DNA from: Podospora anserina
Lineage: Eukaryota
Assembly (NCBI GenBank): GCA_017654855.1
Contig: CM030338.1
Coordinates: 2,170,001 to 2,234,000 of the forward strand
Direction: 5' to 3'
DNA: 64,000 nt
Below the pieces are notes generated by a model, which was not told where the DNA came from, searched no databases, and saw only the letters and a list, made by a program, of their open reading frames with translations. The stretch's first letter is position 1, and the number at the start of each line of letters is the position of its first letter. Below, in pieces: positions 11,727 to 14,663 of this stretch. The translations under genes were made by a program, and so were the position numbers.

Positions 11727-13114
11727 CTTGTCGTAATATCCTTCCCGTTACCGAAAAATCGAGAGATTGCCTGTTGACAAAAAGAGACAATGTGACCAGA
11801 TCGGAAAAAGTAATTCGGGGTGGTGGAATTGGGGTTGCGAAAAAGTCGAGAGGTGGGTTGGCCGCTCGCTGCTGTGGCGGGCGTTATCGACCGAAAACTG
11901 CTTGGGTCCCCCCCAACTTTTGGTTTTTTCTGCCATGGGAATTTTTGGGCGGTGAAGCGCGGTGCCCCACACCGATTGAGAGCTGCAGGCGGGATGCCCC
12001 GCCCTGATAGGAGGGGAGGTTTTTCCTTCCGAACTTTATGTCGAGGGACTTACAAAACTCACCCAATTCACCAGGGAAGCAATTGAATGAATCTAGAACA
12101 GAGATGAGCATGCGTTCACAATTCACATGGTTCATCGAGCAAAACATACTTCACTGGCAGTTCTGGTACTAGTCTCTTAAACAAACGGCTACCTACCAGC
12201 TTCTGGTTTGGCTACTTAAACATATCCTATCATGACATCCTGCCATGCATAATCAGGCCGTCAAAGCAGAGGAAAAACAGTGATTTCCTTACCTCCCGAC
12301 CTTACCTATCTAACCCATCCATCTATTCCAAATGCTTTGCCGGCATTGGGTATGGAGTGACATGGCAAATTCGTGGAGGATCAAGCCTGGCGATTACTGG
12401 GAACCATATCTCCCCTCCCGTTATTATTTCCCCGGTCCGTTCCCAGTCCTCGCTTGTTCTCTTCTTTCCCATGATAAGAGCATATGATATGCTCCGAGAG
12501 GTGAACAAAAAAATAACACAAATAAATACAACAGAAAGAAAAGGTCAGAATTCGCTGTACCTTGGTGTGGTTGGTGGGTTGAGTTGGATGCTTTCTGCAA
12601 AGAAACATGGTGATAGCTTGATGACTGTCCACCGAGGCTGACAAATGCAAGACAGTGGACAAAGCTTGCTGTTGGTAAGACGATGCCCAGAAAGATCAGT
12701 CAAAATATGGACAATAACTTCCGATAGAAAGCGAACCCTGACTTTGACCGAGAGTGTGGGTGACAATATTACAATGGCCGATACACAAACCCCTACCCGT
12801 CTTGGGGGCCTTGCAGGCAGATCCATGGGGGCTGAGCTTGTTTCCTGTGAGATATACTGGCGGCTTACCCCGTTGTCGAGGGAAGGGGGATGCGAGAGAG
12901 GGAAGATGTGAAAGTATCGTAATACCCACCACAAGACATCAAGTCTTGTCAAGAGCTAAGAGTAGCGGCGCAGTTTTCTGGGAGTCTCGGGCTCACGCTT
13001 GATGTAGGGTTCATGGGGGCGAGCTTGCGGGCGATAGGCAAGATTGGGCTGATCCCGATGAGCAGATGAATTGCTCTCACGCGGCGGCTTTCGGTCCTCA
13101 TCGTCGTCTTCCTT

Positions 13115-14663
13115 CTAGTACCGGCGAAGTTTTCTGGGATCCTCGTAGCCACCGCCTTCGTACGCACGCTTCCGGGACTCGTCGTGATCTCTCGGTCTGT
13201 CGTAATCGCGGCCACCGCTGCCACCATTGTACCCACCATGGTCTCCGCGAGGTCGAACAGGCTCCATGTTGCTTCCGGATTGGCGAGGGTTGCGATCGCG
13301 GAAACCGCCGCCAGATCTGTCATCATATGAGCGTGAGCCGCCATCGCGACCTCCATACCCACCACCACCACCACCACCACCACTACCACCACCACCACCA
13401 CCACTACCACCACCACCAGGCCCATCACGACGGCCATCGCGATTGTCACGACCACCAAATCCTCCACCGGGTCCGCTAGGCGCGTTGGGGGGACCGCCAA
13501 AACCGCGATCACCACCACCAAAGCCGCGGTCACCACCTCCAGCACGACCACCGCCAAAACCACCTCCGCGGAAACCACGATCACCACCGCCGAACCCACC
13601 AGGACCGCCTCTGAATCCACGGTCACGCCCTCCCCTAAAACCACCGCCGAAGCCGCCGCGGAAACCACCACCACCAAACCCGCTGGGACCCATCGGTCTA
13701 GGCATCGCGGCCTTAGTATAGCCTCTGCCACCCAACCCGCCACCGAGACGGCGAGGTTTCCAACCCTTGACTGTGCGACCTCTCTCCACATCAACCTTGA
13801 CACGGCGGTCTCTAATTCGGAGGCCATCACACTGATCTAAAGCAGCTATTTCAAGCATGCGCCAAAGGCGCATTTGTTAGTCACGCCTTACCACGGGAAA
13901 AGAGTTACCTTGAAGGCAGTATAAACGATGCGGAGGGGAAGGAAGGAAAGGGGATGCTGTTGCGAGGCAGGCATTCTTGAGCGCCGTGACTCCTGAACAC
14001 AAGCACCCGTCGAACATGATGATGAAGGATGGTTTGAATGTGGGCAATATTACCTCTCATGTCTTTCTCTCGCTCGTACACAACAAACGCGTAGCCGCGG
14101 TGCGGCTTTGGCTTCTTGTTGGGCTTCTCATGGGCATGGGTGTCGCGGACGATGCGGATCTGTTTGCTCTAGGTCAGCATACGTTTTGTTTCCTCGTGGG
14201 AGTATAGTAGATAGCAACATACACGCTCAATGGGGCCAAAGCGGCCAAACTCGCGCTCAAGGTCCTTTTCATCGGCATTGTAGTCAAGACGCGCCACAAT
14301 CAGCGTCTTGAAGGCATCGCCACGGATGTTGGGGTCCTCGTTTGGCTTGTCTAAACATCAGTTAGCATGCTGTAACAATAAAACCCATGGGCGAGGTGGC
14401 CGACAGTTGAGGGGACCCTCGGTCAGGAGCTTCTCGAGAGCTTCCTTCTTCTCGCGTTGCTTGCGGTCGCGCGCCTCGAGCCAGCTTTCGGTCGGGGTGT
14501 ATGGGATCTCCTTGTATTCCTCCATGGCTGGGAGAAAGTCGGCAACACCAGAGATTGTCGCTGTCTTTCGCTGCTCGGGGGCCTTATCGCAGGGCGGCAC
14601 CCATCGCAGAGGTGGGCGCGGCGTGAAGAGCGCCAGCAAATTGGGCGGGAGTCGGTCGGTCAT
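13115..14663 (-). CDS. SNP1: U1 snRNP 70-kDa protein; introns 14351-14404, 14160-14222, 13846-14053
   Basis: [20 protein letters not shown]-terminus; spliced [84 protein letters not shown]-rich tail. Confidence 0.95.

Follow-up and report, generated by a model that had tools for sequence, protein, structure and literature searches.

Autoregulation through a copy of a protein's own RNA site is exemplified by the PIE element of vertebrate U1A and by yeast RPL30, and the U11/U12-65K gene carries USSE elements in a tandem layout. According to the available part of a report on U11/U12-65K, such splice-site-like elements, bound by U11 and U1, control the 3' end of the transcript (PMC5473595). Feedback on U1-70K itself is documented, in the literature that we found, only in vertebrates. 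The accessible sections of the principal paper describe a U1C-U1-70K switch, in which U1 bound to cryptic donors in intron 7 of SNRNP70 activates an upstream acceptor, giving exon 7a and an mRNA that is a target of nonsense-mediated decay (NMD), and state that the human 7a junction was detected only when NMD was blocked (PMC3798272). Similarly, excerpts of another study indicate that blocking the SNRNP70 decoy donor in human cells reduced retention from ~35% to 9% (PMC7373989). In Neurospora, the portion of the paper on srp2 (SRSF5) that was available describes a long retained intron, at a position shared with animals, whose retention creates an NMD target (PMC4379411). A search of mainly open-access literature returned no report of an intron-based switch in a fungal U1-70K gene or of a stem-loop I mimic in any U1-70K gene, and the terms '70K' and 'snRNP' do not occur in the available main text of a 2021 screen of conserved fungal RNA structures (PMC8216456).

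Here we analysed a window of 64,000 nucleotides from Podospora anserina, the minus strand of which carries a U1-70K gene of four exons (Table 1). Exon 1 is 100% identical to proteins of P. anserina and P. pseudocomata and has a single match in the genome. Transcript evidence came from assembled contigs of 4 of 24 listed runs, which derive from four studies and which we took, by guess, to be RNA. The initial annotation had given the introns as 54, 63 and 208 nt, and all three joints are indeed present in the contigs of 4/4 runs. The public Podospora model (P0001), in contrast, comprises only 216 residues, retains intron 3 and places the intron 2 acceptor 9 nt upstream, whereas the RNA contigs back the acceptor at 14160 and a protein of ~407 residues. 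The intron 1 donor, GTCGGC (14404-14399), is unusual and is still spliced in 4/4 runs; its weakness is not kept in orthologues. The loop before RNP1 is longer in the window protein and rich in lysine. The next gene on the same strand, from 11726 downward, presumably encodes a Mrt4-like ribosome assembly factor, judged by its N-terminus, and possibly has an intron in its 5' leader.

Table 1. Position of features at the U1-70K locus, in coordinates of the window.
Feature	Position	Strand	Details
Exon 1	14405..14663	-	U1-70K, ATG at 14663; protein match and RNA contigs
Intron 1, ordinary, 54 nt	14351..14404	-	joint in 4/4 runs
Exon 2	14223..14350	-	RNP2; Ile where human has Phe106
Intron 2, ordinary, 63 nt	14160..14222	-	joint in 4/4 runs
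Exon 3	14054..14159	-	RNP1; ends with DMR plus 1 nt
Intron 3, 208 nt, phase 1, within RRM	13846..14053	-	spliced joint and intron-holding contigs
Productive donor GAG/GTAATA	14048..14056	-	lacks G at +5
U1 stem-loop I-like hairpin	13964..13992	-	outer stem, bulge, GGC/GCC stem 13985-13970, loop GCUCAAGAAU 13982-13973
Decoy donor A, CAAG/GTAACT (GT 13908)	13903..13912	-	31 nt before branch A
Decoy donor B, GTG/GTAAGG (GT 13891)	13886..13894	-	14 nt before branch A
Branch point GACTAAC	13876..13882	-	branch A 13877 by consensus; 31 nt from intron end
7-bp hairpin, branch point to acceptor	13857..13873	-	fold prediction
Exon 4, coding part	13115..13845	-	rest of RRM, Lys where human has Leu175; Gly/Arg-rich tail; stop 13117-13115
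Donor-like array 3' of stop	12286..12935	-	TGTGGTGG/GTAT (GT 12925), GGG/GTAAGC (12868), CGG/GTAGGG (12796)
Donor-like array, remainder	12286..12935	-	AAG/GTACAG (12560), tandem G/GTAAGG pair (12305, 12292)

The starting point of the analysis was the proposal that intron 3 contains two extra donors, directly upstream of its branch point, that match the GTAAGT consensus at least as well as the productive donor. Both GT dinucleotides and the GACTAAC lie exactly where they had been placed. With the 5' end of the genome's own U1 genes as partner and G-U counted as half, the donor at 13908 made 10 of 12 possible pairs, and those at 13891 and at the productive site 7.5 each; the best score of the intron was reached by 0 of 200 shuffles. 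The 5' end of U1 reads ACCUUG, so that on the exonic side AAG/GU fits it best, and not CAG/GU. The same genome holds four divergent U1 genes (L002-L005). The coding consequences that had been foreseen also held: use of the 13908 donor would add 145 nt and bring in a stop 17 nt into exon 4, while full retention, which disrupts the RRM, meets a TAA at 13907-13905 that lies within decoy donor A itself.

Equally, the suggestion that the intron sits where the human switch does could be substantiated. Primers and the 7a sequence, as given in the available part of the human study, place SNRNP70 intron 7 between Ser159 and Lys168. The exon 7 primer extends by one base into Ser159, residues 168-175 are covered by the exon 8 primer, and phase 1 is the only one in which the 7a stop ahead of the cryptic donors can be read (PMC3798272). 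In the protein alignment, the end of the human primer at DMH plus one base falls at the place of fungal intron 3, which follows DMR plus 1 nt, also in phase 1. As far as the human system is described in those sections, the two share the gene, the position and phase within the RRM, the clustering of cryptic donors and an RNA with a premature stop. They differ in that SNRNP70 has a 3.2-kb intron with an alternative acceptor, exon 7a and cryptic donors that are used, whereas Podospora has a 208-nt intron in which the decoys stand against the branch point at a spacing that appears unspliceable, with no clear internal acceptor. By analogy, the fungal switch may work like the human one, a used alternative acceptor not being evident in the fungus.

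To place the intron in an evolutionary context we drew on a pattern scan of metagenomes, which yielded at least 111 loci and hence, with the window, at least 112 rows: 26 of Sordariomycete/Leotiomycete type (group A), 37 of other ascomycete type, 31 of basidiomycete type and 18 intron-less or spliced. The group A label is backed by likeness to named proteins, while the other ascomycete-type and basidiomycete-type labels are assumptions of ours that rest on exon motifs. Setting aside 2 incomplete rows and merging 7 near-duplicates left 17 group A introns of 160-255 nt among the matches listed, and these are related, not independent. Among the matches listed, the position and phase of intron 3 are identical across all three intron-bearing groups. 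The internal donors are conserved as well, decoy A (AAG/GTA, 23-31 nt before the branch A) in 17/17 and decoy B (G/GTAA, 12-14 nt before it) in 11/17 of the listed group A introns, in which AAGGTA and the core of a hairpin discussed below form invariant alignment columns against a mean identity of 42%. A site capable of at least 8 U1 pairs occurs, among the matches listed, in 10/17 group A introns compared with 0.46 expected from shuffles, and in 9/25 distinct other ascomycete introns (not counting one locus whose intron does not start with GT) compared with 0.79 expected. The productive donor of the listed introns lacks G at +5 in 17/17 group A and 23/25 other ascomycete cases, the two exceptions being plain introns of 57 and 61 nt. 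Retention would introduce a stop in 16/17 of the listed group A introns; in the remaining one (L024) it gives an in-frame insertion of 63 codons in the RRM.

The spacing of these elements is informative with respect to how they act. In a survey of 404 kb of the same genome, which was confined to heuristically called introns with strong signals, no ordinary intron had a donor-to-branch distance of 28-35 nt, 59 fell at 36-51 nt (controls 0), and counts at 8-27 nt equalled those of controls. As ordinary donors stand at least 36 nt from the branch, internal donors 23-31 and 12-14 nt away look like decoys. Splicing from the 13908 donor was not supported: it is 31 nt from the branch A, short of the 36-nt edge, and contigs of 4/4 runs, in which rare forms are lost, contain no joint from it. 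It could be argued that donor A is nevertheless truly used, removing a 63-nt intron, and that the frameshifted mRNA is destroyed by NMD too fast to appear in wild-type contigs, retention being secondary. An intron that began at donor A would be of ordinary length (49-63 nt in 16/17 of the listed introns), U1 pairs more extensively with donor A than with the real donor of the window, and rare forms drop out of contigs. The human 7a junction, in the part of that report available, was likewise visible only with NMD blocked (PMC3798272). It should be emphasized, however, that the ordinary length is due solely to a branch placed 24-48 nt from the acceptor, a distance that in ordinary introns is mostly 9-17 nt (group A introns among the matches listed). 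Furthermore, all the donor A sites, at 23-31 nt from the branch, fall below the 36-nt edge, itself derived from heuristic introns with strong signals; donor A lacks G at +5 in 16/17 of the listed group A introns; and its joint is found in 0/4 runs. We therefore regard use of donor A as unlikely.

Intron 3 itself is recovered in the contigs. A contig of its sequence is present in 4/4 runs (four studies, guessed to be RNA), which points to the unspliced form with a premature stop that the initial annotation had anticipated. In three runs this contig spans 13818-14083 and thus reaches 28 and 30 nt into the exons, less than the 31-nt bar set for bridging, and in the fourth it is internal to the intron, with no exon overlap. 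The depths of intron contig and spliced joint, which are poor measures of level, were 19.6:52.7, 28.1:77.7, 6.2:10.3 and 3.2:13.1. Neither intron 1 nor intron 2 is present in any contig of the four runs examined, so that simple carry-over of DNA seems less likely, and none contains a joint from 13908 or 13891, although rare forms drop out of contigs. The presence of intron 3 sequence together with the lack of an internal-donor joint indicates that the likely unproductive product is RNA that retains intron 3, and not RNA spliced from 13908. Retention at this position would account for the frequency with which public U1-70K gene models read into the intron. The srp2 intron of Neurospora offers a comparison, in that its sequence, as described in the available part of that paper, is not notably conserved (PMC4379411), whereas U1-70K intron 3 has several fixed elements.

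One such element is a GC hairpin between the branch point and the acceptor, predicted in 17/17 group A introns and exceeding 95% of shuffles in only 10/17 (among the matches listed). Overall folding of intron 3 was no better than that of shuffles (z 0.49), and comparison with Rfam families gave matches at chance level only (E 1.8 or worse). Two further pairings were considered. Long-range pairing between the intron 5' end and the sequence preceding the branch point was no better than swapped pairs (15189 of 20000) and was rejected, and a stem around decoy A that had been seen by eye in Leotiomycete-type introns found no support when arms were swapped (11450 of 20000). With the post-branch hairpin folded, branch and acceptor are effectively 7-19 nt apart in the matches listed, which raises the possibility that the conserved elements merely aid the splicing of an awkward intron, the structure shortening a distance and the U1 sites acting as helpers, so that retention reflects inefficiency without feedback. 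Weak AG/GT donors may also follow from the coding sequence, and some orthologues have lost the intron (18 of at least 112 rows are intron-less or spliced). Against this, basidiomycete-type loci manage with a simple intron of 50-60 nt at the same position (among the matches listed), U1 sites next to a branch point would be expected to hinder splicing, and a second donor-like array lies after the stop codon, also in the listed loci that have no intron here. A mere splicing aid is, in our view, quite improbable, and the decoy switch remains the preferred reading.

The human precedent suggests a further arrangement, in which the internal donors and an acceptor located early in the intron delimit a cassette resembling exon 7a. 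A YAG is present at intron position 25-39 in 11/17 of the listed group A introns, often after a branch-like motif, and one other ascomycete lineage has, in an 85-nt intron, a branch, an acceptor and, 8 nt on, a perfect donor. In the window, however, no AG occurs before position 61 and no branch-like motif precedes that one, the upstream piece is, where present, too short for splicing, and the contigs of the 4 runs, from which rare forms drop out, contain no such joint; a poison exon of the human type is thus very unlikely. A nested layout is found in the introns of L013, L017, L033, L051, L071 and L105 (85-86 nt), which comprise a donor, a branch, a CACAG at ~33 nt and, after 8 nt, a perfect GTAAGTAT, which stands 20 nt before the real branch. 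Seven basidiomycete-type loci (L025, L041, L044, L055, L068, L098 and L114) have an 81-87 nt intron that begins with a GTTATT donor, soon meets a stop and forms a small conserved hairpin downstream of the branch, their relatives having plain introns of 50-60 nt.

The most unexpected component is a hairpin in the middle of intron 3, 60-80 nt from any splice site, which resembles stem-loop I of U1; like the post-branch hairpin and the array behind the stop codon, it was absent from the initial annotation. Loop I of the genome's four U1 genes reads GAUCA(A/C/U)GAA(U/A) (the Rfam consensus was also compared), and the window loop, GCUCAAGAAU, equals it at 9/10 bases. The consensus loop of the clade, CCUCAAGCUU, matches at only 6/10, with the Podospora U1 genes as reference; a search for fungal U1 genes among prokaryote sequences gave 15 matches, all in prokaryote-titled records and set aside, and one among viral sequences gave a single distant match. 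The element consists of a 3-bp GGC/GCC stem, a loop of 9-10 nt, a bulge and an outer stem, and it is present in 17/17 group A introns among the matches listed; the L101 intron has two copies, giving 18 in all. A strict scan for the loop recovered it in 16/17 group A, 0/37 other ascomycete and 0/31 basidiomycete-type introns of the matches listed. The element is also visible in orthologue proteins whose models wrongly continue into the intron and which share the peptides ALKLA, WPSSL and GPQAC, which are three frames of one DNA element. It occurs in 19/32 such proteins, which belong by name to Sordariales, Diaporthales, Glomerellales, Hypocreales and Xylariales, and those of Colletotrichum, Ilyonectria and Cordyceps also hold two copies. 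Within the 36-Mb genome a pattern search gave four matches, and the three outside this intron look coding by eye.

The available part of the structural work on human U1-70K shows that the RRM contacts loop bases U30-G34, and that the structure makes use of G28 and of an A29-A36 pair (PMC4383343). In the 18 listed copies the positions equivalent to U30, C31, A32 and G34 are kept in 17, 18, 18 and 18, respectively, and position 33 varies, as it does among the four U1 genes (A, C or U). Positions 28 and 29 are both C in 17/18 listed copies, where U1 has G and A, and positions 35-37 of the consensus are U-rich and unlike U1; the three departures of the window from the clade consensus are all towards the U1 letter. 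In whole-intron folds the 3-bp stem has a probability of 0.88 in the window, and reaches at least 0.6 in 7/18 and stays below 0.1 in 8/18 of the listed copies. The arms of the outer stem pair better with their own partners than with swapped ones (2 of 20000 permutations), while its covariation did not exceed that of shuffles in a machine alignment whose varying bulge lengths put the stem out of register, and the inner stem shows no two-sided change across the listed copies. The protein differs as well: Ile and Lys occupy the places of human Phe106, which stacks on C31, and Leu175, which packs on U30, in 20/20 readable group A rows and in no row of the other two intron-bearing groups (among the matches listed). 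The joint occurrence of these changes and the hairpin is one clade-level coincidence and does not constitute a test. A role for the hairpin as a cryptic AAG acceptor was discarded, since 2/18 copies have no AG there. Other mid-intron hairpins that look conserved are found in L020, L060 and L069 (introns of 204-219 nt) and in L070, L077 and L085, and are unlike U1 loop I.

Does the likeness reflect binding? The decoy switch could be real and the hairpin bind another factor or serve folding, its resemblance to loop I being accidental. The conserved non-U1 bases at C28, C29 and the U-rich 35-37 are consistent with this view, as is the confinement of the hairpin to one clade when the decoys are wider (among the matches listed). 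In contrast, loop size and register are those of U1 loop I, position 33 is free in both, and the 9/10 match of the window sits in the one gene whose product binds loop I, the only other pattern matches in 36 Mb being the three that appear coding. We consider an accidental likeness rather unlikely, and treat the hairpin, on its sequence, as a candidate low-affinity site for free U1-70K, a role to which we would assign even chances. It would then belong to the type represented by U1A and RPL30, in which the gene's own pre-mRNA likewise contains a weaker version of the RNA loop that the protein normally binds. Neither a splice site nor a poly(A) signal lies within the hairpin, which would therefore have to act at a distance. 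The available sections on the human switch contain no mention of a stem-loop (PMC3798272).

Behind the stop codon lies an array of donor-like sites on one strand, which recurs across ascomycete-type loci of Pezizomycotina kind, including those without intron 3, among the matches listed. Its features are a TGTGGTGGGT block that is conserved, two sites in tandem at a spacing of 10-13 nt and, near 12532, UGUA with a U-rich stretch. Counting G/GTA(A/G) in the 800 nt after the stop (loci with at least 500 nt, duplicates removed, matches listed) gave 36 sense and 6 antisense sites against 8.0 in shuffled sequence for 7 group A loci; 84, 33 and 19.6 for 18 other ascomycete loci; 41, 11 and 12.0 for 10 intron-less loci; and 10, 12 and 14.9 for 12 basidiomycete-type loci. 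The window alone is weak over 800 nt (2 versus 1.1). Over 887 nt it has three GGTAAG, among them the tandem pair shared with orthologues, and 0/748 background windows have three; the tandem GGTAAG pattern by itself is common, with 50 instances in the genome and 100 in a reversed control. At 13114-12956 (minus strand), past the stop, the frame stays open for 52 codons and closes with a repeat of the C-terminal motif, ETPRKLRRYS-stop, preceded by 13 further residues. This second copy is absent from orthologous loci and proteins and thus looks like a local duplication, which shifts the 3' elements ~160 nt downstream. Contig cover at the locus reaches down to 13427 only, and contigs cannot show RNA ends.

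In other systems, U1-70K mediates a block of 3'-end formation when U1 sites lie close to a poly(A) signal. The array probably adds another layer of U1 sensing, at the level of 3'-end formation; binding by a protein of Nrd1/Seb1 type is an alternative. As in U11/U12-65K, according to the available text on that gene (PMC5473595), a gene for an snRNP protein is followed by elements that look like splice sites, two of them in tandem; the arrangement differs in that the fungal sites are of the major spliceosome and are known here from sequence.

Taken together, the anatomy of intron 3, its conservation, the spacing of its signals and the contigs that hold it make it a conserved candidate for a negative-feedback switch that operates by intron retention, and feedback at the level of U1, as originally proposed, is the best reading and a probable one. 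From these observations we infer how U1 loading, protein binding, the direction of the response and the fate of the RNA may be connected. Plentiful U1 snRNP would load on the decoy sites beside the branch point and either form a dead-end complex with the branch region or cover it. The weak, distant donor would then be left unpaired and intron 3 would stay in, the retained RNA being decayed, held in the nucleus or translated into a dead protein. Free U1-70K may, with about equal odds for and against, bind the hairpin as a low-affinity copy of stem-loop I and act in the same direction, which would provide a second input that reads unassembled protein. More tentatively, and at somewhat less than even probability, the sequences suggest that Sordariomycetes and Leotiomycetes have a self-control of U1-70K by direct binding of an intronic copy of U1 stem-loop I, which arose in the clade that has the Phe106-to-Ile and Leu175-to-Lys changes at RNA-contacting positions of the RRM. 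It would have been added to a more ancient decoy switch for U1, whose position animals share, and to the 3' donor-like array. If this is true, one short gene would combine the sensing of free protein and of assembled U1 snRNP with control of the 3' end, and it would be the first direct site-mimic feedback for U1-70K.

A fungal switch at the same intron as that of SNRNP70 would be either very old or repeatedly reinvented. It would illustrate a feedback layout for short introns that are recognised across the intron, in which decoys are set just inside the smallest workable donor-to-branch distance, and the hairpin would add a direct protein sensor of the U1A kind. As the whole switch lies within 208 nt of a genetically tractable fungus, each of its parts can be mutated.
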